Below, piece by piece: positions 20,008 to 61,524 of a stretch of 64,000 nt of DNA. Source of the stretch: Candidatus Parcubacteria bacterium. Lineage in GTDB: Bacteria; Patescibacteriota; Saccharimonadia; UBA4664; JBIOIQ01. The DNA lies in contig OY970378.1 in assembly GCA_963718875.1 (NCBI GenBank), positions 388,631 to 452,630 on the forward strand, in the 5' to 3' direction. The notes below the pieces were generated by a model. It did no database searches. It saw only the letters and a program-made list of their open reading frames with translations, and was not told the origin of the DNA. The number at the start of each line of letters is the position of its first letter. Position 1 is the stretch's first letter. The position numbers were made by a program, and so were the translations under genes.

Positions 20008-20649
20008 ATGACCACTACGCTTGTTGGCACCCCGGATCCTGAAGACCGAGGTGATGGCGACTCAGAGGAGAACGCAGTAAATCCCGTACCTCAACACGAG
20101 CGGATGCCTCGTAGACGGGATTCCAAGACATTCAGTTTTCGCGTGGCCGACTGTCATGGCTATGTAACTGTTGGGTTGTACGACGACGGTAGGCCCGGAG
20201 AGATTTTTCTTCGGCTCACTAAGCAAGGCACTACTTTGGCGGGAGTATTGGATGCCTTTGCGTCAGCCGTGAGTATTGGCTTGCAGTGCGGCATTTCACT
20301 GCGTGCATATGTACAAATGTACATAAACATGCGATTCGAGCCAGCGGGGATAACTGCTGATCCCGAGATTCGTTTCGCCAGCTCCGTAATTGATTATGTG
20401 TTTCGTCGGCTGGCACTGGAATATATGCCGTTCGATGAACGGGCACAGCTGGGTATTTTGACTACCACAGAAAGGTTGCATCCAGTATCAGATCAAGGTC
20501 CTTTGCCAGGGGAAGAGCCAGACGTGGACCAAGGCACTTCGCCACAATCGAAGGACGCCCCGTACTGCTACGTCTGTGGTGTAGTGATGCAGCGGGCGGG
20601 AGCCTGTTTCGTCTGCAGCAGCTGCGGTACCACTAGCGGCTGTTCGTAG
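20008..20649 (+). CDS. orphan C-terminal fragment of adenosylcobalamin-dependent (class II) ribonucleotide reductase, NrdJb-like; GC-rich
   Basis: HGYVTVGLYDDGRPGEIFLRLTKQGTTLAGVLDAFASAVSIGLQCGISLRAYVQMYINMRFEPAG and a C-terminal Cys cluster (CYVCG...CFVCSSCG) match the last 200 aa of NrdJ. GC is about 55 percent against a backbone near 43 percent. No N-terminal partner gene is in the window. Confidence 0.55.
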   Translation: MTTTLVGTPDPEDRGDGDSEENAVNPVPQHERMPRRRDSKTFSFRVADCHGYVTVGLYDDGRPGEIFLRLTKQGTTLAGVLDAFASAVSIGLQCGISLRAYVQMYINMRFEPAGITADPEIRFASSVIDYVFRRLALEYMPFDERAQLGILTTTERLHPVSDQGPLPGEEPDVDQGTSPQSKDAPYCYVCGVVMQRAGACFVCSSCGTTSGCS

Positions 20650-21238: not shown

Positions 21239-24200
21239 ATGGTTGCAGTAGTCCTAGTTATTTTAATATTGGCTATAGGTTTTGCGTGCGTTGCCTATGT
21301 GCTTTATCGGCGAACTTTACGCAGGGCAAAAAACATTGAGCGTGGCCTCAAAATGGTGCCTTTATTGATCCATTTGCCGCCTAGAAGTGCTGACACTGAG
21401 GCTGGTTCGCGGGACGTGCGTGAAGTGATGCGGGAAAAGGTGGCGCAAGCCGAGGTTTTGTATAATCTTATATCTGGTACAGCCACAACTGGATTTAAAA
21501 GCCGATTTTATGGTCAACGCCACGTTGCATTGGAAATTATAGCGACTGACGGAATGGTACATTTTTACGCGGCTGTACCGATAGCGTTGGTGCCGGTCAT
21601 CACTAACGCTATTCAAACTGCCTATGCAGGGGCAAAAATTGAAGAGGCCGAAGACCATAACATCTTTAACCCACACGGAAAGTTATCAAGTACTGCTGGC
21701 GGTGAACTGGTACTTAAGGCTAAGGCTGCCTACCCAATTGCAACAATTGAAAAACTGGAGCGGGATCCCATAGAAGCTCTTATAAATGCCTTGAGTAACT
21801 TAAAGCCTGGTGAAGGTGTCGGTATTCAGATTATGCTTCGCCCAGCCGCTAAGGGGTGGGAGAAAAAAAGCCTAGAGCTGGTTAAAAAAATGCGACATCA
21901 TGCTGGGGCGAAAGCTTCTTCTACCTATAGTACCCGTGATGTTTTAATGGCGGCGGTTAAAGCTCCTGAAGAGCGCCGCCAAGAAGTTGCAGCTAATTCT
22001 CCGCAAGCTCTATATATGAGCGACTTAGAACAGTCGGTCGTAAAAGCTATCGAAGAAAAAACTACTTTGGCTGCTTATGAAAGTTTGGTAAGAGTGTTGG
22101 TTTCGGCTAATAGCGCCCAAGAAGCGCAAAATTTACTACGTGAGGTAAGCTCTAGCTTCTCATTGCTGGATGCCCCTGGGCTTAACGGCTTTAAGTTTTT
22201 GCCTGCGAATGACATTGCCGGCTTGGTAACGGCTTTTATATTGCGTTTTTTCCCTCCAGAACTAAATCACACCATACTTAATAGTAAGGAACTGGCAACT
22301 TTGTTCCATTTGCCCGACGCCCAGTTTACGGCAAATTCGGAAGTTGAGCGACTGGCGAGCAAAGAGGTGGACGGACCGCCAGCTATTCCCTCCACTGGCC
22401 TATTGATGGGATATAACATTTTTCGAGGGACTAAAAAAGAAATTCATCTTTCGCCTGAGGACCGTCGCAGGCATACCTACATTGTAGGACAAACCGGTAC
22501 AGGTAAAAGTACTATCTTACAGAATTTGGCGGTTCAAGACATGCTGGCAGGCAATGGCTTTGCTTTTATTGACCCTCATGGTGATGAGGCAGAAAAAATG
22601 CTTTCAATGGTGCCCAAAAACCGCTCTGAAGATGTAATTTATTTTAATCCAGGGGATACCGATCATCCGTTAGGACTGAATTTATTTGAGTTTAGTGACC
22701 CGGCGCAGAAAGATTTTTTGATTCAAGAAACTATTAATATGCTTTATAAGCTGTACGATCCGAATGGAACGGGTGTTATTGGTCCTCGGTTTGAACAATG
22801 GTTTCGTAATGCCGCCCTTACACTGATGAGTGATCCAAATGGGGCTACTTTTATTGAAATTCCAAAAGTCTTTACTGATAACGATTATCTCAAGCAAAAG
22901 TTCAAATACATTCAAGACCCAACAGTTATGGAGTTTTGGACTAAAGAAATGGGCCAAACCAGCGACTACCATAAAAGTGAAATGTTGGGTTATTTTGTAA
23001 GTAAGTTTGGTGCGTTTCAGCAAAATGAAATTATGCGTAATATTATTGGCCAAACCAAAAGCGCATTTAACCTGCGTGACATTATGGATAACAAAAAAAT
23101 CCTAATTGTAAACTTGAGTAAGGGTAAATTGGGCGAGCTTAACTCGAGGTTGTTAGGTATGATGTTTGTAATTAAATTCCAGGCGGCGGCTATGAGTCGT
23201 GCAAATGTCCCTGAGGCTGACAGACCGGATTTTTGCTTATATGTAGACGAGTTCCAAAATTTTTCAACCGATTCATTTGCTTCAATTTTGAGTGAAGCTC
23301 GTAAATATCATTTGAACTTGATTGTGGCGAACCAGTTTATAGGGCAGCTCAGTGATGAAATTCGGGACGCAGTGTTTGGCAACGTTGGGACTATTATGAG
23401 CTACCGAACTGGCCCGGAAGATGCGGAGTTTTTAGTTAAGCAGTTTGCTCCTATTTTTGATGCTCACGATATGGTCAATATACCCAACCACAATGCCGTT
23501 ATCCGACTGATGATTAGCGGGTTACCTTCACAGCCCTTTAGCATAACAGCTTTACCGCCGCTGGGAGTCGAAAATCCAGAGCTGGGCGAAGCCATGAAAC
23601 AGTTGTCGAGGGCTAAGTTTGGTTCAAGTCGAGCGCAGGTGGAACAGGAGATATTTGCGCGATTGAGTAGTAAGCCAGTGCAATCTCCAATTGCGAGCCA
23701 AACACCTGTAGCTGGGTTAAATTCAGGCGTACCACAGCCAACTTCTATGCCTAATCCACAATCGCCAATGTCGGCACTGCCTGGTCCCAATAGAGCTTTG
23801 CCTGGGGCTGCAGTTGGTGGTATTAATCCTACGGTAGCACCGGTTTTGTCTGGCAGCTCTTCGTCTCCAGTACCTTCTACGTCTACAGCGATGCCTGCAC
23901 AACCAAGAGTAGCTTCCGCTTCGGTCTTAAAACCGCTGGATAGCCAGCCTATAGTAGACACCCAGGCTCCTGGAGCAAATCCCAATAATGTTGCCACAAC
24001 TAACCCTACAGCTATAAGTCTGTTAACTCCAGCTTCGGTAGTAGGCGCGCCGCCTGCATCTTTGGTTTCTGTGGCGCCACCTAACGATAAAATAGATAAA
24101 AGCCAAGCTCAGGGGCAACCTCCTTCAAGTCAGGTAGCTCCGGTAGTTTCGCTGCACCATGATGCCGTTCCGCCAGCGCCGGCATCTATTCCGGCAAGTC

Positions 24201-25726
24201 CCAGCACCTTAAACACAGGTTACAGTTTTCAAAAGTCTGCTAGCCCGGTCGCTCAGCCAAACCAGCCCTTACCTTCTCCAGATGTTTCTACATCTGCACC
24301 TAATCAATTTGAAAAACCACAGTTGGTTCCTATCCCAATAGCTCGCGCTCAGTCCGAAAAAACAATCGCGCCTAGATTAGACCCTGTACAGGATATTCCT
24401 GGCGAAGGTAGTTTAAATGAGTCAGTCATTAAGCCGCCAACTCCAGTATTGAATTCGGCTCTTACGCCCGCCCGAGAAGTTCAATCACTGCCTTTTAATG
24501 CCACTACTGCTGATGCGGCAATCCCAGTTCGTCCAGCTGTTGTAGCTGCTCCTGCGACACATTCGAGTATGGCTAACCAACCAATTTCGCATTTGGCTAC
24601 CACACCCACACCCACACCCACACCCACACCCACACCCACACCCACACCCACACCCACACCCACACCCACACCCACACCCACACCCACACCCACACCCACA
24701 CCCACACCCACACCCACACCCACACCCACACCCACACCCACACCCACACCCACACCCACACCCACACCCACACCCACACCCACTATTGATAAACCGAAAA
24801 ATGAGCCAGCTTTAGATTTAGAAAAATATCAAATTACAATTGCACCTGCTTTTCAGCAGTTGAGAGATAAACCTTTTGAGGCGCAAAATTCGGGGGCAAT
24901 GATTGCTTCTGAGTTATCATCAAATCCGATGTCGATGCCTTTGCCAGTAGCCGATAAACCTCAGTTTCATGGGGAGCAAGTTGTGGCGGAAAAGCCGCAA
25001 GATAAGATTATAGATTCTGTAGCGTCTCAAAGCAGCCATGACGATGTAAATAATGTTTTTGCTGCTCAAACTTCTTTAGAAAAGTCAGATCAGATGGGCT
25101 CAGCGATAGCCGAACCTGGTCCAGGCCAGGAAGCTCTTATTCCGCCGCCGCAATCCAGTGAAAAAAAATCAACTTTGTCCGAGTCTGATACTGTTGATCA
25201 CCACGAATCTGTGATCAAACACGATCCCAAAGGACGGTTGATTGTTACGCCTAGGCCCGCAGTAGAATGGTTGCCTGAGGAGAAAACCGATAGCCTTCCG
25301 CCGCCCGCTAAGGAGCCATACAAACCGGCATTGGAGGCTTTGGCAGCTTTGGACAAACAAAAGGCTTTAGAGGCAGCGGCAGCCAAGGCTAGAGCCGATG
25401 CGGAAGTTAAATTAGAAGCCGAGGTCAAGCGACCCACGACTATTAAAGCAAATCTTAAAAAAGTTAAAGCTGAAGCTAAGCCTATGGGTAAGGCTATTGA
25501 CTCAGCTAAGGCAGAAAAAATTATTAAGCCTATCCGTTCAGGTGCTACGCGTCACAATCCACCAACTCCCACAATTATTCTACCCAGTAAAAATCCAGAT
25601 ACAGTAACGCCCCAGGTTGGGTTGTCAACTGTAAATCAGCCACCTACTCCAGTAATAGAAAAACCATCGGTATTGGCTCCAGGAGAAATATATGTGGACG
25701 AAAAGGGCAACGTAGTTACGGGCTAA
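21239..25726 (+). CDS. large membrane-anchored P-loop ATPase of the TraD/TraG/VirD4 (type IV coupling protein-like) family with a roughly 750-aa disordered Pro/Ser/Thr/Ala-rich C-terminal tail
   Basis: N-terminal TM helix. Walker A YIVGQTGTGKST, FIDPHGD (the DPKGD-like motif of coupling proteins), Walker B LYVDEFQNF, and NLIVANQ. The tail contains (TP)n and a Lys/Ala-rich segment. Confidence 0.65.
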   Translation: MVAVVLVILILAIGFACVAYVLYRRTLRRAKNIERGLKMVPLLIHLPPRSADTEAGSRDVREVMREKVAQAEVLYNLISGTATTGFKSRFYGQRHVALEIIATDGMVHFYAAVPIALVPVITNAIQTAYAGAKIEEAEDHNIFNPHGKLSSTAGGELVLKAKAAYPIATIEKLERDPIEALINALSNLKPGEGVGIQIMLRPAAKGWEKKSLELVKKMRHHAGAKASSTYSTRDVLMAAVKAPEERRQEVAANSPQALYMSDLEQSVVKAIEEKTTLAAYESLVRVLVSANSAQEAQNLLREVSSSFSLLDAPGLNGFKFLPANDIAGLVTAFILRFFPPELNHTILNSKELATLFHLPDAQFTANSEVERLASKEVDGPPAIPSTGLLMGYNIFRGTKKEIHLSPEDRRRHTYIVGQTGTGKSTILQNLAVQDMLAGNGFAFIDPHGDEAEKMLSMVPKNRSEDVIYFNPGDTDHPLGLNLFEFSDPAQKDFLIQETINMLYKLYDPNGTGVIGPRFEQWFRNAALTLMSDPNGATFIEIPKVFTDNDYLKQKFKYIQDPTVMEFWTKEMGQTSDYHKSEMLGYFVSKFGAFQQNEIMRNIIGQTKSAFNLRDIMDNKKILIVNLSKGKLGELNSRLLGMMFVIKFQAAAMSRANVPEADRPDFCLYVDEFQNFSTDSFASILSEARKYHLNLIVANQFIGQLSDEIRDAVFGNVGTIMSYRTGPEDAEFLVKQFAPIFDAHDMVNIPNHNAVIRLMISGLPSQPFSITALPPLGVENPELGEAMKQLSRAKFGSSRAQVEQEIFARLSSKPVQSPIASQTPVAGLNSGVPQPTSMPNPQSPMSALPGPNRALPGAAVGGINPTVAPVLSGSSSSPVPSTSTAMPAQPRVASASVLKPLDSQPIVDTQAPGANPNNVATTNPTAISLLTPASVVGAPPASLVSVAPPNDKIDKSQAQGQPPSSQVAPVVSLHHDAVPPAPASIPASPSTLNTGYSFQKSASPVAQPNQPLPSPDVSTSAPNQFEKPQLVPIPIARAQSEKTIAPRLDPVQDIPGEGSLNESVIKPPTPVLNSALTPAREVQSLPFNATTADAAIPVRPAVVAAPATHSSMANQPISHLATTPTPTPTPTPTPTPTPTPTPTPTPTPTPTPTPTPTPTPTPTPTPTPTPTPTPTPTPTPTPTIDKPKNEPALDLEKYQITIAPAFQQLRDKPFEAQNSGAMIASELSSNPMSMPLPVADKPQFHGEQVVAEKPQDKIIDSVASQSSHDDVNNVFAAQTSLEKSDQMGSAIAEPGPGQEALIPPPQSSEKKSTLSESDTVDHHESVIKHDPKGRLIVTPRPAVEWLPEEKTDSLPPPAKEPYKPALEALAALDKQKALEAAAAKARADAEVKLEAEVKRPTTIKANLKKVKAEAKPMGKAIDSAKAEKIIKPIRSGATRHNPPTPTIILPSKNPDTVTPQVGLSTVNQPPTPVIEKPSVLAPGEIYVDEKGNVVTG
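24599..24783 (+). repeat. perfect hexanucleotide microsatellite (CACACC)x30 inside the CDS, encoding (Thr-Pro)n
   Basis: Three consecutive 60-nt sequence lines are identical and consist solely of CACACC units; the repeat is in frame (2 codons per unit). Confidence 0.95.
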
Positions 25727-46776: not shown

Positions 46777-48326
<1,550 letters not shown>

Positions 48327-48558
48327 AGGGAGCATTGACGTCGCAAGACGTTCCCTGACCCCGAGTCAGGGCCAGAGTTAATGTAATTGAGCTGTTGCAA
48401 AACGTGCTCTTACAAAAATTTCTGCGATATCCTAGGTCGACCATTCCTAAGTTACGAGTTAAGAGTAGAGAGTTTTGAGTTTACTCATGACTCACCACTC
48501 AAGACTCATGACTATGTGAATGAAGAGTTTACACTGCACAACTTAGGTTTTTAACAAT

Positions 48559-48584
48559 AAAAGCCGCCCAACGGGCGGCTTTTA
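48559..48584 (+). terminator. intrinsic terminator about 230 nt downstream of 16S
   Basis: AAGCCGCCC-AAC-GGGCGGCTT hairpin followed by TTAT/T-rich sequence. Confidence 0.6.
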
Positions 48585-48674
48585 TTGTGCTCAGACAAAT
48601 TATAAAGTCCTATTAATGAATGTGGGCGCCTACGGATGACTGAAGTCATCCGTAGGTTTGCGCGCCCGAGTAAT

Positions 48675-49121
48675 TCAGTGCATGGCGCTGACGAGATCGT
48701 CGTGCCGCTTGAGCAAGGCGTCGAACCACTCCAGATCCTCACCTTCGAGGAAGAAGGCGACGAACTCGCGCCAGCCACACACCATGCTGTCGTCGGTGTC
48801 GATGGGAAGCTCATCCAGCGGGAGCAGATGACGGGTCCTTATTTCAGCAGTTCGCTCTCGGCTGATGGTGGTGGGCCCGAAGAAGCGGTCGGATTCCTCC
48901 GAAGCGAAGGCGAACTCGTGCACCATCTGGGTGAAGAGTGGGGTTTGCTGGCGGAACCAAATCTGCATGAGCATGCGTAGGACTGAGTATGCAGACTCGG
49001 CGGGAAACCTCTTCAGATACCTGGGAAGGTCTGCTCGCAGCTGAGCTCTGACTGCGGCCTGCAGGCAGTCTCGCTCGATCTGGGTCTTGTCGGAAAACTG
49101 CATTTTGGTGGGCTCGGGCAT
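48675..49121 (-). CDS. hypothetical protein in a GC-rich island
   Basis: 148-aa ORF; local GC is about 57 percent against a backbone near 43 percent; a perfect 12-bp stem hairpin (CCTACGGATGAC/GTCATCCGTAGG) lies just downstream. Confidence 0.4.
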   Translation of the reverse strand: MPEPTKMQFSDKTQIERDCLQAAVRAQLRADLPRYLKRFPAESAYSVLRMLMQIWFRQQTPLFTQMVHEFAFASEESDRFFGPTTISRERTAEIRTRHLLPLDELPIDTDDSMVCGWREFVAFFLEGEDLEWFDALLKRHDDLVSAMH

Positions 49122-50039: not shown

Positions 50040-50420
50040 TTAGGTCGAAGCCGATACTTCGCTGGCTGACTCCTCTCCTGAGAGGCTTGGTTCCTTGACT
50101 CCCAGAAGCAGCAGCTGGTTGCCTGCCAGCCAGAGGAAGCTTGCCGTTGCACTGCCTTCGGGGACGCTCTTTCCGGTCGCCGACACGTAGTTGTCCGGAA
50201 TAAGATAGACCGGAGACAGGTTGGTGACCTGGAGTACTCCATCGACAAAAACTCCAGTTGAGTCGGCGAAGTAGAAGCAGAGCGTCTGTCGAGGAAGTCG
50301 AAGCCCTGATGGATTGCGACTGTCGACCCTGATGCTCAGGAAGCGAGGATCTTGATCTTGAGGGGGAAGTTGGGTTTGGTAGCACAACATGGTTTGGGGA
50401 ATGCTGGGCTCGTCGGACAT
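50040..50420 (-). CDS. hypothetical protein (GC-rich island)
   Basis: 126-aa ORF in DNA of about 55 percent GC; no recognisable motif. Confidence 0.3.
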   Translation of the reverse strand: MSDEPSIPQTMLCYQTQLPPQDQDPRFLSIRVDSRNPSGLRLPRQTLCFYFADSTGVFVDGVLQVTNLSPVYLIPDNYVSATGKSVPEGSATASFLWLAGNQLLLLGVKEPSLSGEESASEVSAST

Positions 50421-50537: not shown

Positions 50538-50948
50538 TCAACCGGTTTGGAAGAGGCCTTCCGGGAGTCTGGCTCTGAACTGGGCTAGTACGGGGGCAGG
50601 CTTCTGGAAAAGCGAGTATGACTCACGGTATGCCTTCCAAAGGCCACAGAGCTCTATCAGCGCCGACGGGACGTGGGCTAGGTAGGCGCCAGGGAAAAGA
50701 CTGCTAAGTATGGCATGGATTCCTACCGGGCCAACCATACCGATTGCAAGAATGACGACAGAAGTGCGAGCGTAGAATCTTATTTCCCTTTGCCTCATGG
50801 CGCTTTCGCCAAGCCTACGCATTTCGAGCTCTACCCCAGCTCCGGCAGCCAAAGTTTCCCAGCCGGCGTAGGCAAACGCGACTGCTAGGCCTGCTGCCAG
50901 CATGGAGAGGGGGACGGCAATGAGGAGTGCGATAATACGAAGGGTCAC
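50538..50948 (-). CDS. hypothetical membrane protein (GC-rich island)
   Basis: 136-aa ORF with about 4 TM helices, GC about 55 percent. Confidence 0.35.
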   Translation of the reverse strand: MTLRIIALLIAVPLSMLAAGLAVAFAYAGWETLAAGAGVELEMRRLGESAMRQREIRFYARTSVVILAIGMVGPVGIHAILSSLFPGAYLAHVPSALIELCGLWKAYRESYSLFQKPAPVLAQFRARLPEGLFQTG

Positions 50949-51700: not shown

Positions 51701-51776
51701 TGGTGGAGCATGTCGGGATCGAACCGACCACCTCCTGCTTGCAAAGCAGGCGCTCTACCGAATGAGCTAATGCCCC
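51701..51776 (-). tRNA. tRNA-Ala (anticodon TGC)
   Basis: Reverse complement GGGGCATTAGCTCATTCGGTAGAGCGCCTGCTTTGCAAGCAGGAGGTGGTCGGTTCGATCCCGACATGCTCCACCA; G3-U70 pair, anticodon loop CTTTGCAAG. Confidence 0.9.
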
Positions 51777-51861
51777 TCCAGCTCGTGCCTAATATATGAA
51801 TGAGCTTAGTGTGCAAAGGGCTCCAAGCTTCAATACTATGTTGCTTGATGTTTGACTTGCT

Positions 51862-51938
51862 TGGTGGGCGCACAGGGACTCGAACCCCGGACCTCGTCAT
51901 TATCAGTGACGCGCTCTAACCAGCTGAGCTATGCGCCC
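51862..51938 (-). tRNA. tRNA-Ile (anticodon GAT)
   Basis: Reverse complement GGGCGCATAGCTCAGCTGGTTAGAGCGCGTCACTGATAATGACGAGGTCCGGGGTTCGAGTCCCTGTGCGCCCACCA; anticodon loop CTGATAA. Confidence 0.9.
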
Positions 51939-54453: not shown

Positions 54454-54579
54454 ATGTTCGAGAACGATCAGAAGCAAGACCAGTCACAGGCGCCCGTAAT
54501 CAGTTTACCAGATGATATTGATACCAAAGAAATTAAACTTTGTCGTATTGATGACCCAAATTGCGAGTCTTGCCAATAG
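54454..54579 (+). CDS. small Cys-containing peptide (41 aa) with a strong SD
   Basis: AGGAGGGG 5 nt upstream of the ATG; sequence MFENDQKQDQSQAPVISLPDDIDTKEIKLCRIDDPNCESCQ (acidic N-terminal part, C-terminal C-x8-C-x2-C). It is not in the supplied ORF track because it is under 60 aa. Confidence 0.3.
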   Translation: MFENDQKQDQSQAPVISLPDDIDTKEIKLCRIDDPNCESCQ

Positions 54580-54753: not shown

Positions 54754-55179
54754 ATGGCGCATGAGGTACAAGAAGGCGAAGTAGTGGAGACAGAACAGCC
54801 AACGCGTGATCCCAAACGGACATGGCGCTATAACAGCTGGATTTCTGGGTTTGTGCTGGTTGTGATAGGCATAATGGTGTTATTGCAAAACTACGGTGTA
54901 GTGACTTTTGTGAGTATTCATAATTGGTGGGCATTATTTATTTTGATCCCTACTTTAGGTGCTTGGAGTACGGCGCTCGGCATGTACTTGGCCAATGGGC
55001 GCAAACTTAACCGCGCGGTGCTGGGGGTGGCTTACGGCGGAGTGTGGCCGTTGTTTATTTCAATTGTATTCTTATTTGATTTGGATTGGGGCAGAGTTTG
55101 GCCATTCTTTTTGATTTTGGCTGGGGTTAGTTCGCTGATCTGGGGCGGTAGGAACAAACACTCGCATCGGCACGAGTAG
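54754..55179 (+). CDS. hypothetical 4-TM membrane protein
   Basis: 141-aa ORF, four hydrophobic helices, His-rich C-terminal end. Confidence 0.35.
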   Translation: MAHEVQEGEVVETEQPTRDPKRTWRYNSWISGFVLVVIGIMVLLQNYGVVTFVSIHNWWALFILIPTLGAWSTALGMYLANGRKLNRAVLGVAYGGVWPLFISIVFLFDLDWGRVWPFFLILAGVSSLIWGGRNKHSHRHE

Positions 55180-55418
55180 TAGTCTGATCGATTCTACCCC
55201 TTGACTGTCATCCCGGATCGGAAGCCGAGCCGAACCATTCTGTAGCTCGGTGCTCCGGATCCGGGATCTTTTAACTGTATTCACTACCTGGCCTTTCGAC
55301 AAACTCAGGGAATAAGCGTTAAATTAAACCATAACAACTTTGTTGTCAGCTATTATTTACACATTTTACTTGCAGTGGTATAACAATGGGACAACCAGTC
55401 CGCCGATCAAGGTGAGGG

Positions 55419-55787
55419 ATGATGAGTGAGTGGAGTTTGGTCGTGGAGACGCGATTTCAGGTGGAGGATCTACTTGGATCGACTCGGGCGTCGCAAGAGA
55501 CACGAGAAGAAGTTCTGACCCTTCTAGACGGCAAAGTGGTAGAAATCCTCAAGCCATTTGTGCTGAGGGCCGTCATGAATGTCTGTGATTCAGAGCATCT
55601 AGATGTATCCTTGGGGGAAGTTCGTACACGGCTGGTGCAGCTGGGATTTTCTCAAGTGACATTGAGCGATGTGGACATTCTGGTTGCGTTCAAGCAGCTG
55701 GAAGTCGAGGGCGAGCTGCGGATCCGTAAGGAAAATGGCGATATTGTCATCCGGGTTGTTCCGATTGCATTTCCAATCAACCGGTAG
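55419..55787 (+). CDS. small winged-helix-like protein, paralog 1 of 4 (GC-rich island)
   Basis: SD AAGGTGAGGG. The C-terminal segment SDVDILVAFKQLEVEGELRIRKENGDIVIRV fits a recognition-helix plus wing pattern (hxxALxxLxxxGxLxxxxxxGxxxxY/I). Confidence 0.4.
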   Translation: MMSEWSLVVETRFQVEDLLGSTRASQETREEVLTLLDGKVVEILKPFVLRAVMNVCDSEHLDVSLGEVRTRLVQLGFSQVTLSDVDILVAFKQLEVEGELRIRKENGDIVIRVVPIAFPINR

Positions 55788-55857
55788 TTTTGCGAAAGCT
55801 TGTATCGTTGAAATGGCCACTCCGGCCGTTGGGCTCATCGAGAGAAGAGGTTAGGCT

Positions 55858-56199
55858 ATGAGTGCTGTAGAATCGGTTCTGGATCTGTTGCAGCGTCGGC
55901 AGCAAGGTCCGGTGGACGAGAAAGCATTGGTTCAGGTGCTGGTGGTGCTGATCGAGCAGTGGCTCTCCGCAGAACTTTCAGAGAAGTCGCCCAGAACATG
56001 GGTCGGTAGTGTCAGGGGGATTATCATAAATCTGGAACGGCGGCATCCCGAGTTGACAGACCTTCTGGACGAAGAGGATGTGCGCAGGGCATTGGTTCCG
56101 CTGCTTCGGGAAGGGATTCTCGAGGCCCCGGCAAGTGAGGACAGGGATCTTCACGGCAGCCCCACCCTTTATATAGCTCGCTCAGGAGTGAGGGCGTAA
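55858..56199 (+). CDS. small winged-helix-like protein, paralog 2 of 4
   Basis: Same architecture; C-terminal EEDVRRALVPLLREGILEAPASEDRDLHGSPTLYIA. Confidence 0.4.
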   Translation: MSAVESVLDLLQRRQQGPVDEKALVQVLVVLIEQWLSAELSEKSPRTWVGSVRGIIINLERRHPELTDLLDEEDVRRALVPLLREGILEAPASEDRDLHGSPTLYIARSGVRA

Positions 56200-56267
56200 C
56201 ATGTTTGTTGCGTAGTTTATCCGGTCATTCCGGCTGCAAATGTAGCATACGACAAGGGAGATGAGAG

Positions 56268-56609
56268 ATGGTAAGTGCATTGGACAGGTTTCCCTATATC
56301 TGGGGGGTCCGAAACAGGACTCTAGCTGCAGTACGAAGCGAACAAGATGCTTTGGCGGCCTTCCATCTGGCTGAGGTCGTCAGAGAGTTCCTTCGCGGTC
56401 TCGGGAAGGAAGTCGAGTTTCAGGGGCTTGAGCTCTACGCTAGGCTCTTTCATCACAACGAGACTCGGGCGGAAATGACCGCCAACGACGCCGACGCCGT
56501 CTTTGTCGGGGCGCTCGAAAAGATGGTTAAGGACGGAGAATTGTTCTGGGGGAGAGAAGGGGGATGGTATCACTGGCGCCCCTCGGTTCCCAGCGCATCG
56601 ACTAGTTGA
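56268..56609 (+). CDS. small winged-helix-like protein, paralog 3 of 4
   Basis: SD GGGAGATGAGAG; C-terminal DADAVFVGALEKMVKDGELFWGREGGWYHW. Confidence 0.4.
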   Translation: MVSALDRFPYIWGVRNRTLAAVRSEQDALAAFHLAEVVREFLRGLGKEVEFQGLELYARLFHHNETRAEMTANDADAVFVGALEKMVKDGELFWGREGGWYHWRPSVPSASTS

Positions 56610-56784
56610 TGATCGACATGAGAGGATGCTCTTTCGGCCTGCCACTGGGGTGGGCCGAAAGAGCAGTTTTTATTTTTGACGATAAACCGATGGATATGCA
56701 TTGTTTTTGAATCGTGTTATAACTCTAAAGCAAGTGGGATACTATTCTGGGCCTAATGCAATATCGGACGAAAAGGGAGCAAGG

Positions 56785-57222
56785 ATGGTTCAGCAGGTGG
56801 CAGTGTCAGGTGATGTGAGCGCTGAGCTGATGGTTCGGCTGAGGAGGCTCGTCAGCGATTACCAGGGGTACGGTGTGAGTACCGTGTTGGTCTGGTGGGC
56901 GCTCGGCCGCATTCGCAAGGCCATGGGTCCTGCAGGTAACTCCATCAGTGGGCGAGAGTTCGTACTGGCTTTGCGTCAGCTCGAAGCTGCTGGCAAGGTG
57001 ACGGCGGTAAGGCTGGAGGGATCAAAACCAACCTTCGAGATTACGGATGTATGGCGGCCCCGGAGTGGCCCCTTCTGGGGGAGTCCGGTGTTGGCTAGTC
57101 CAGTGAAGCACAGTTCCTCAGGACCACAAAGCTCCTCAAGGGCATCAAGCGCGAGCGACCAGCGGTCGCGACTTTACCGCGAAGAGGATCTCTACTCGAG
57201 TACTTATGTGAATAGCTGGTAG
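56785..57222 (+). CDS. small winged-helix-like protein, paralog 4 of 4 (with S-rich C-terminal extension)
   Basis: ATG at 56785 preceded by AAGGGAG (preferred over the TTG at 56701 used by the ORF track); SGREFVLALRQLEAAGKVTAVRLEGSKPTFEI motif; followed by a 12-bp stem hairpin terminator at 57228-57266. Confidence 0.4.
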   Translation: MVQQVAVSGDVSAELMVRLRRLVSDYQGYGVSTVLVWWALGRIRKAMGPAGNSISGREFVLALRQLEAAGKVTAVRLEGSKPTFEITDVWRPRSGPFWGSPVLASPVKHSSSGPQSSSRASSASDQRSRLYREEDLYSSTYVNSW

Positions 57223-57767
57223 AAGCAGGTTCCTGCGGTCCCTTTGTTTTTGGTACCGCAGGAACCATCGGTTTTGTTCAAAATGGGTCTTGACCCTAGA
57301 ATCACTCCTGTGATAAACTTTTGAAAGGTCAAATTGGAGTTCACGTATGAGTAGACAACTAACCAGTCGTAACGGAGAGCACATTCTCTAGCGTAAGTAA
57401 GTTGCCTTTTTTAATGTGAGCTCCGCGCCAATACCGCGGAGTTTTTGAATCTTAACAAACAACGGCCCTTTCATTTGGTGCATTTCGTCGTCAGATCCTC
57501 CGTTCCGCATTCGACGTAGGTCAAACTACGCCTCATTTGCGGTACTCGGCTATTCCTAGAACTACACTCAACTGAAAGTCCCTACCGTTTATAAGTAAAT
57601 TTTAAGATTAGCGCTTGATTAAACCAAAAGCGTTAATCTGGGTAAACTGTTGTACCGTACTGGTATAACAGTAAAATGACAATTTCAACCGATCCGCCGA
57701 CAAAGCGGATCAACAAATGTGTATTAGCAATTTGTCTTTACAAATTGCTAGTCAAATTCTTGTAAGA

Positions 57768-61143
<3,376 letters not shown>

Positions 61144-61408
61144 TTTTTTTACAACACTTTCTATTGTCATATTGGATGAAAGTTCAAGATGATAGTGAAA
61201 GTGCCGATTTGACTAGCAATTTGTGACGACAACGTCATTTACAACCCAAATTAAAATTTACGATAAGTTTCATTTCACAAAGTTTTTCGAAGTATCATTT
61301 AGGACTACAGCAATAGTTGGCGTTCGAAAATGGAAAGTGAAAATTGTATAAATGAGATTGACTGGGCAAAAGCCCCAGTCTCTATGGGAGAAATTATTCG
61401 CCCAGTGA

Positions 61409-61518
61409 GGCCGGTGCTTTTGGCGAGGAGGATACACCGGTTCCCATCCCGAACACCGAAGTTAAGCTCCTCAGCGGCGATGATACTGCATATAGCGGGA
61501 AAGTAGCACGGTGCCGGA
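61409..61518 (+). rRNA. rrf: 5S ribosomal RNA
   Basis: CCGGTTCCCATCCCGAACACCGAAGTTAAGC core and a pairing 5'/3' helix I; about 110 nt, 265 nt downstream of the 23S. Confidence 0.85.
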
Positions 61519-61524
61519 TTAATC

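Follow-up and report, generated by a model that had tools for sequence, protein, structure and literature searches.

Four small genes between the 16S and 23S rRNA genes of a Candidatus Parcubacteria bacterium: a probable fast-evolving winged-helix family

Introduction

The internal transcribed spacer between bacterial 16S and 23S rRNA genes is short, co-transcribed and holds at most tRNA genes on the same strand, tRNA-Ala and tRNA-Ile being the usual spacer tRNAs. Unlinked rRNA genes are nevertheless widespread in Planctomycetes, Chloroflexi, Deinococcus-Thermus, Patescibacteria and symbionts (bioRxiv 10.1101/705046). The locus described here belongs to a Candidatus Parcubacteria bacterium and lies in a stretch of 64,000 nucleotides (GenBank assembly GCA_963718875.1, contig OY970378.1, positions 388,631 to 452,630 of the forward strand; hereafter the window, in whose own numbering positions are given). 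As in the arrangement with an unlinked 16S gene and a 23S-5S pair, the 16S and 23S genes of the window are separated by 9.4 kb and by unrelated genes. They differ from it in being close together and in the same orientation, with an inverted tRNA-Ile/tRNA-Ala pair between them. In front of the 23S gene stand four small genes, p1 to p4, which a first-pass annotation of the window had described as a GC-rich island of tandem winged-helix-like paralogues.

The reading that we favour on balance, with modest confidence, is that p1 to p4 are small, cytoplasmic accessory binding proteins of winged-helix type, from a family that is restricted to one clade, evolves fast by birth and death of genes and is organized here in two transcription units.

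Results

The four genes

Four consecutive open reading frames (ORFs) are present on the plus strand, with starts at 55419, 55858, 56268 and 56785 as first reported: p1 (55419-55787; 122 amino acids (aa), isoelectric point (pI) 4.8; predicted N-terminal helices and a C-terminal winged helix), p2 (55858-56199; 113 aa, pI 5.0; two predicted N-terminal helices and a winged helix), p3 (56268-56609; 113 aa, pI 5.8; C-terminal family motif ALEKMVKDGELF...WRP, fold assigned by alignment only) and p4 (56785-57222; 145 aa, pI 10.1; a putative winged-helix-like core at about residues 10-90, likewise assigned by alignment only, and a Ser-rich disordered tail ending in Trp). The good ribosome-binding sites and the raised GC content of the first-pass annotation were both recovered. 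Purine-rich Shine-Dalgarno-like sites stand 5-10 nt before all four starts, and GC is 0.51-0.59 in the four genes vs 0.43-0.47 in the long genes of the window. The codon positions follow the coding-type pattern GC1>GC3>GC2, with a GC3 (GC at third positions) of 0.56-0.64 vs about 0.40 in the long genes.

Relatives were reached through the 90% clusters of two flanking genes, encoding a 143-aa membrane protein and a 40-aa peptide, and consist of three metagenome contigs, L049 (3577 bp), L051 (1690 bp) and L052 (963 bp). In L049 and L051 the reading frames of p1, p2 and p4 homologues have remained open, at 30-45% identity. Under simulated neutral substitution to the observed divergence the chance that an ORF stays open was 0.4-2.4% per gene, and the joint chance for the three homologue pairs about 1e-6. 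The pairs align with few indels, every one of them comprising whole codons, and the ratio of nonsynonymous to synonymous substitutions (dN/dS) is 0.25-0.5 with dS saturated. All four genes were also called by gene callers in two independent assemblies. It is concluded that p1 to p4 are real genes. Public annotation starts p1 at GTG 55443 (114 aa) and p4 at TTG 56701 (173 aa). Since the N-terminus MSE..VETRFQ is kept in L051, the ATG at 55419 or 55422 is the likelier start of p1; for p4 the ATG at 56785 is likelier, because the 173-aa version overlaps the -10 element of the gene's own promoter.

Predicted fold, charge and kinship

The AlphaFold2 model of p1 had a predicted local distance difference test score (pLDDT) of 72, with the 10-residue blocks over residues 41-110 at 79-87, and showed a long helix followed by beta, helix, helix, beta and beta. 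The p2 model (pLDDT 81; predicted template modelling score 0.73) has two N-terminal helices and then the same core as p1. This is the H1-beta1-H2-H3-beta2-beta3 order of a winged helix, and it came with significant structural matches to solved domains; p3 and p4 can be added by alignment only. The earlier guess of a winged-helix fold was therefore borne out by the predicted folds of p1 and p2 and extended to p3 and p4 by alignment. At least p1 and p2 are shown by these models to fold, as predicted, as winged helices. The fold is that of a generic winged helix and of no specific family: p1 to p4 did not reach the hidden Markov model (HMM) threshold of any curated winged helix-turn-helix (wHTH) family, GntR, MarR, PadR, ArsR, TrmB and AbiEi included. 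In Pfam p1 and p4 had no match, and p2 and p3 matched unrelated families at E>=0.046, far under the cutoff. NCBIfam gave one chance-level match, of p3 to bcl-2, far under its cutoff too, and a sequence-profile search of the PDB gave nothing relevant. The features of kite proteins (ScpB/MukE/JetB, DUF4194), which are a tandem double winged helix, an HMM match and an adjacent gene for an SMC (structural maintenance of chromosomes) protein or a kleisin, were not found.

The proteins fall into two types by charge, a split that is repeated in the relatives. In p1 to p3 and their homologues, which are acidic (pI 4.8-5.8), helix 3 begins with Asp or Glu. The p4 protein (pI 10.1) and its homologue in L049 (pI 9.3) are basic and carry a Ser/Gly-rich tail ending in Trp. 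A wHTH regulator that binds DNA would be expected to have a basic or polar recognition helix and wing.

That the four are paralogues, as had been proposed, was recovered for a part of them. Pairwise BLASTP among p1 to p4 gave nothing significant. Through their homologues in the relatives p1 and p4 could be linked: the p1 profile matched a profile of p4 and X101, an additional 101-aa family member of L049, with P 6e-5 over 77 columns (hhalign), and in leave-one-subfamily-out HMM searches the members of the p1, p4 and X101 subfamilies came out on top among 774 ORFs. By sequence p2 and p3 were not recovered. A helix-3 motif, (D/E)-h-x-x-A-L-x-x-L-x-x-(E/D)-G-x-h or, more narrowly, D-h-x-x-A-L-x-x-L-E-x-E-G, is nevertheless in register across the family, and a 'WRP' motif after the wing is common to the p2-like proteins, p3 and p4; the match of p3 with the p2 family was confined to the 'Y.WRP.VP' end (P 0.004). 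It is only through such in-register motifs, and for p2 through its predicted fold, that p2 and p3 appear tied to the family. Neither further paralogues within the window nor any similarity of the four-gene island to the rRNA genes and the rest of the window was found.

The locus in relatives

Between the membrane protein gene (85% aa identity) and the beginning of the 23S gene, whose first 100 nt are included (95%), L049 and the window are co-linear. Both relatives whose contigs cover the locus (L049 and L051) carry the family there. The members found there are a p4-like gene (L049 1581-2012; 31% identity to p4, E 6e-12; basic, tail ending in W), a p2-like gene of L049 (45% identity to p2, E 3e-27), X101, and a p1-like gene of L051 (42% identity to p1, E 1.8e-23). 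No homologue of p3 was found, and p3 forms a 90% cluster of one. The order of the elements varies. In the window a promoter is followed by p1, p2, p3 and a terminator, then by a second promoter and p4; in L049 the order is promoter, p4-like gene, terminator, palindromes, promoter, p2-like gene and X101, directly before the 23S gene; and in L051 it is promoter, p1-like gene and X101-like gene. The first gene behind the conserved promoter block thus differs between the window and L049. A fixed locus, a varied content and a conserved promoter together fit a birth-and-death evolution of promoter-gene-terminator modules.

The rate of change is also exceptional for the neighbourhood. The family has a dN of 0.53-0.97 vs 0.05-0.10 in the flanking genes, so that its amino acids change 6-10 times faster than those of the neighbours, and the differences per codon position are about 0.40/0.40/0.55 vs 0.15/0.06/0.50 in the flanking genes. 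A raised GC3 (0.51-0.66) persists in three genomes although synonymous sites are saturated.

Several further observations were made in the relatives. At L051 1308-1690 a frameshift and a stop disrupt an X101-like gene, whose C-terminal motif ALDLLRRGGEVKL continues in a different frame; the copy is a pseudogene or else reflects an assembly error. Three palindromes (L049 2092-2134 and 2176-2206; L051 352-394) have the core CAGGTGTAACCTG and a 3-nt loop in common and differ in their outer arms. Two of them are perfect with 20-nt arms, and one has 14-nt arms at 93%. Palindromes with this core sit between or upstream of the family modules in the relatives, and none occurs in the window. L051 429-770 and L052 567-907 contain a 348-nt GC-rich stretch, 79% identical between them, at the place of the LiaF-like gene of the window. 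No conserved ORF or Rfam match was found in it; it holds a family-like motif, DFTMLSLLEREV, and may be a decayed family member. The gene for a LiaF-TM-like membrane protein (54754-55179) and its 58-nt palindrome occur only in the window genome. In L049 and L051 the gene for the 40-aa peptide leads directly to the family genes, without a LiaF-like gene.

Distribution

With p1 to p4 concatenated, a word-indexed search of 5.8 billion proteins found no homologue, probably because it was swamped by the low-complexity tail of p4. The same search with p2 alone, and again with the family alignment, brought back nothing beyond the family. An exhaustive profile search of 1.84 billion representatives gave the seven input proteins and three weak matches to repeat proteins, one of which, a multi-wHTH repeat protein, is the sole outside match that is itself winged-helix. 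Scans of a genome collection anchored on the glycosyltransferase (GT2) gene gave no match, and those anchored on PurD gave relatives of 35-55% from scattered phyla only, with no synteny; when the 143-aa membrane protein served as anchor in metagenomes, the outcome was a single uninformative 43% match at a contig end. The family appears to be confined to a narrow clade, this bacterium and two close relatives. In the literature nothing relevant on comparable tandem winged-helix arrays was found.

Promoters, hairpins and transcription units

The promoter of the TTTACA-17-TATAAC type that had been noticed before p1 is part of a conserved block (55327-55385, plus strand), which consists of a palindrome ACAACTTTGTTGT (55334-55346), the -35 element TTTACA (55356-55361) and an extended -10 element TGGTATAAC (55376-55384) with TATAAC at 55379-55384 and TGG directly before it. 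The pattern is unique in the window, with 0 occurrences expected. Over its 59 nt the block is 85% identical to L049 2298-2356, the coding DNA downstream being not alignable, and the same promoter motif stands before the p4-like gene of L049 (1369-1398) and before the p1-like gene of L051. After p3 there is an intrinsic terminator (56627-56675, plus strand), overlooked in the first-pass annotation, with a 17-bp stem (56627-56665) that includes 10 G-C pairs and is followed by the T run GTTTTTATTT (-35.4 kcal/mol, z -7.0). Because this strong terminator splits the array, it consists of a p1-p2-p3 unit and a p4 unit. The p4 promoter, as read from the sequence, would have an extended -10 element (TGtTATAAC, 56715-56723, plus strand) with the same TATAAC as the conserved promoters.

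Two further hairpins bound the cluster, as had been reported. The imperfect palindrome of 58 nt at 55210-55267 (plus strand; 16-nt arms 88% complementary, -34.2 kcal/mol, z -4.1) lies directly 3' of the LiaF-like gene and is most likely the terminator of that gene as well as the left edge of the cluster. The closing hairpin at 57228-57266 (plus strand; 15-nt arms 93% complementary, -28.4 kcal/mol, z -6.2; weak T tract) is the probable terminator of p4. It is followed by a 23S promoter-like site, TTGACC-18-TAAACT (57290-57319, plus strand), and the 23S gene of L049 is likewise preceded by a hairpin and a TTGACC site. Since similar long-stem hairpins also follow the 16S gene, the 5S gene and several other genes of the window, those that bound the island appear to be the usual terminators of this genome.

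The sole other copy of TGGTATAAC in the window is found at 57661-57669, about 100 nt before the 23S gene and within a 28-nt segment that the L049 leader lacks; this copy may be a second promoter or may match by chance. Together with co-linear short repeats at an offset of about 2295, it had raised the possibility that the region upstream of p1 is a duplicate of the 23S leader; this was rejected, as neither ungapped nor gapped tests were significant and the copy belongs to the segment that L049 lacks. A candidate operator motif, ACATTTGTTG, showed no enrichment.

Position between the rRNA genes

The window is a segment of bacterial chromosome with a GC of about 45.6% and contains housekeeping genes for an AddA-type helicase-nuclease, a Clp ATPase, TrpRS, the alpha and beta subunits of PheRS, GyrB, GyrA and PurD. 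By Rfam models the three rRNA genes all read on the plus strand, 16S at 46777-48324, 23S at 57764-61152 and 5S at 61410-61519. Between the first two, tRNA-Ala(TGC) and tRNA-Ile(GAT) lie on the minus strand (51701-51938). The 9.4 kb from the end of the 16S gene to the start of the 23S gene contain at least 10 ORFs, which are distributed over both strands and include genes for a family-2 glycosyltransferase, a phosphoribosyltransferase, two membrane proteins and the LiaF-like protein. A hairpin (48554-48588) follows the 16S gene, and at 57290 there is a separate promoter-like site for the 23S gene. A gap of this size and content, with its inverted tRNA genes, is no internal transcribed spacer in the sense given above, and the description of p1 to p4 as lying inside an rRNA spacer had to be dropped. 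The four-gene segment is ordinary chromosomal DNA between unlinked rRNA genes. As such rRNA genes are common (bioRxiv 10.1101/705046), the oddity of protein genes in this position disappears. The inverted tRNA-Ala/tRNA-Ile pair suggests an ancestral rRNA operon that was broken by an inversion.

The 23S gene measures 3389 nt vs 2925 nt in the model; part of the excess is a 141-nt insertion at about 59615-59755, near model position 1765, and no intron family matched. Three orphan ORFs of 56-59% GC (48636-49121, 50040-50420 and 50538-50948), one pair of which overlaps on opposite strands, lie in the 16S-23S gap; they matched no family and showed no relation to the winged-helix family. Rfam families were found neither in the gap nor in the contigs of the relatives.

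Mobile-element and defence tests

It had been proposed that the four genes are carried on an integrated element and act as defence or anti-defence cargo. Of the window's ORFs scanned against Pfam, none was recognised as an integrase or recombinase, and there were no significant direct repeats at the island borders, where attachment sites had been looked for. PADLOC gave 0 matches for p1 to p4, PHROGs nothing with E<0.2 and a Foldseek search of BFVD nothing with E<=0.001; tblastn against phage and plasmid records and scans of IMG/VR yielded no relative. Comparison with relatives, a check that the first-pass annotation itself had recommended, spoke against island status in that the locus is the same in L049 and L051, so that conservation by vertical descent was largely found; that the gene content varies remains on the other side. 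The composition is atypical, which alone is insufficient to define an integrated mobile element, and the other features of one were not found. Those of an integron-like cassette array were not found either: no integrase was seen in the window, and the units have promoters of their own. When compared with attC sites, the hairpin at 56627-56665 with its clear T run fits an intrinsic terminator, whereas the T tract of that at 57228-57266 is weak. The mobile-element reading is without every defining feature that was tested.

Other features of the window

A 40-41-aa ORF (54454-54579; MFENDQ...KLCRIDDPNCESCQ), the flanking peptide gene mentioned above, is also present at L049 1183-1305, L051 108-230 and L052 287-409. 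It is about 88% identical to the L049 and L051 copies, and its 90% cluster comprises five members. Over the final 23 residues there is a weak match (E 0.014) to the redox tail at the extreme C-terminus of ribonucleotide reductase (RNR) alpha; the product could be a stand-alone RNR tail peptide. A 213-aa ORF at 20008-20649 corresponds to residues of about 735-875 only of a vitamin-B12-dependent RNR (TSCPD domain; E 5e-59). Together the two suggest an RNR that is split into several genes. A 1495-aa ORF (21239-25726) contains a TraD/VirD4-like coupling ATPase region; within this ORF the segment from 24 to 25 kb differs from the remainder of the window in its sharply negative GC skew (-0.34).

Discussion

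The favoured reading, that of an accessory winged-helix family under birth-and-death evolution, would work as follows. The family would change by duplication, loss and reshuffling of promoter-gene-terminator modules. In the window the first unit, p1-p2-p3, would be read from a near-consensus sigma-70 promoter with an extended -10 element up to the strong intrinsic terminator, and the second, p4, from its own extended -10 promoter up to the closing hairpin. The basic p4 type, with its GntR-like helix 'SGREFVLALRQLEAAGKV' and disordered tail, would bind nucleic acid and is plausibly a small regulator or a nucleoid-associated protein. For the acidic p1 to p3, with acidic residues where a recognition helix would begin, binding to proteins is more likely; their N-terminal helices would perhaps contact one another or p4, and p4 would in this way be modulated. 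The proteins are probably dispensable, which would explain the rapid turnover.

Several points weigh against this reading. The clade sample comprises three genomes, two of them as short contigs. The input of AlphaFold2 was a 7-row family alignment that presupposes homology, p2 and p3 were recovered neither by profile comparison nor by the leave-one-out HMMs, and the putative fold of p3 and p4 comes from the alignment alone. Predicted fold and charge are the sole basis of the proposed function, and the winged helix is a generic fold that also has pure protein-protein roles. The raised GC3 that is retained across three genomes is not accounted for.

A first alternative holds that the proteins are pure protein-interaction subunits, forming a hetero-oligomeric winged-helix complex like ESCRT-II, the SMC kite subunits or the Stn1/RPA32 type, with no DNA binding. 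The acidity of p1 to p3, the Asp or Glu at the N-terminus of their helix 3 and the predicted co-transcription of the genes agree with it, as does a weak Pfam match of p2 to DUF4194 (E 0.064). That match reaches 13.4 bits vs a cutoff of 32.7, however, and no SMC or kleisin-like neighbour was present among the ORFs scanned. Given also that p4 is strongly basic and that the set of subunits varies among the relatives, which is unusual for an obligate complex, we consider this alternative rather doubtful.

According to a second alternative the genes are cassettes of a conflict system, that is, hypervariable anti-defence, immunity or defence-modulator cargo exchanged at a recombination hot spot beside the 23S gene. 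Such cargo would suit the GC3 of 0.56-0.64 vs 0.40 in host genes, the differing gene sets and orders of three close genomes, the amino-acid change 6-10 times above that of the neighbours, the acidity of p1 to p3, and the perfect palindromes of 43 nt that separate modules in the relatives and combine a common core with compensated arms. The relatives, however, have the family at the same locus with an orthologous promoter upstream, dN/dS is below 1, and no enzyme or toxin partner is adjacent. Neither an integrase or recombinase among the Pfam-scanned ORFs nor border direct repeats were found, the apparent repeat with the 23S leader was not significant, and PADLOC, PHROGs, BFVD, the phage and plasmid records and IMG/VR had nothing to offer, all of which makes the proposal unlikely. 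A more speculative variant, which we regard as quite improbable, is an integrase-free, recombination-driven cassette array in which promoter-gene-terminator modules for diversifying winged-helix proteins are shuffled, perhaps through the compensated 43-nt palindromes, are kept GC-rich by biased gene conversion and serve genetic conflict in a bacterium with a small genome. If it were true, and the array took part in conflict with phage, host or competitor, the locus beside the 23S gene would be the anchor of a hypervariable winged-helix system of a new kind.

That p1 to p4 are not functional genes at all but chance ORFs in GC-rich non-coding DNA or decaying pseudogenes might be suspected from the lack of homologues beyond the clade in very large databases, the very high divergence among relatives, the broken X101-like copy of L051 and the possible decayed copy in L051 and L052, but is scarcely credible in view of three homologue pairs that stay open (joint neutral chance about 1e-6), a dN/dS of 0.25-0.5, codon-position GC periodicity, few and only whole-codon indels between pairs, confident compact AlphaFold2 folds, and conserved promoter, Shine-Dalgarno sites and terminators.

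On the favoured reading of an accessory, fast-evolving family, p1 to p4 would add a sequence-orphan, lineage-restricted family to the very large winged-helix fold class. They would also offer a clean example of birth-and-death evolution of small genes, with the promoter conserved, in an apparently small genome (1.19 Mb contig). If the acidic and basic members form a regulator-plus-modulator set or a conflict system, they could inform how such lineages build lineage-specific regulation.

Among described systems, the small wHTH regulators (the GntR N-terminal domain, PadR, MarR, Fur/ArsR) share with the family the small size and the helix 3 and wing motif 'x-S-x-x-x-h-x-x-A-L-x-x-L-E-x-x-G-x-h', and helix 3 and the wing of p4 (SGREFVLALRQLEAAGKV) resemble the GntR consensus. 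Unlike these regulators, p1 to p4 match no Pfam or NCBIfam model and have no effector domain, and their winged helix occupies the C-terminal rather than the N-terminal end, preceded by one or two extra helices. In addition p1 to p3 are acidic, with Asp or Glu where the DNA-contacting residues normally sit, and the family evolves far faster than is usual for regulators. The protein-binding winged helices form the second group for comparison. Their sequence identity to the family is 6-20% only; they are parts of larger or tandem winged-helix proteins in defined complexes, whereas each of p1 to p4 has a single winged helix, and no partner genes (SMC, kleisin and the like) were seen. An extended winged helix with N-terminal helices is shared with the cullin WHB domain, ESCRT-II Vps22/25/36 and the C-terminal winged-helix domain (WHD) of kleisins, and the likeness extends to the kite proteins ScpB/MukE/JetB, the Stn1/RPA32 winged helix, the extended winged helix of TFIIIC and the Cdc6/ORC WHD. 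The acidic surface and the encoding of several paralogous winged-helix units together are likewise features of such modules. Against this background only the rapid turnover, a GC bias that persists and the presence of both acidic and basic members are unusual.

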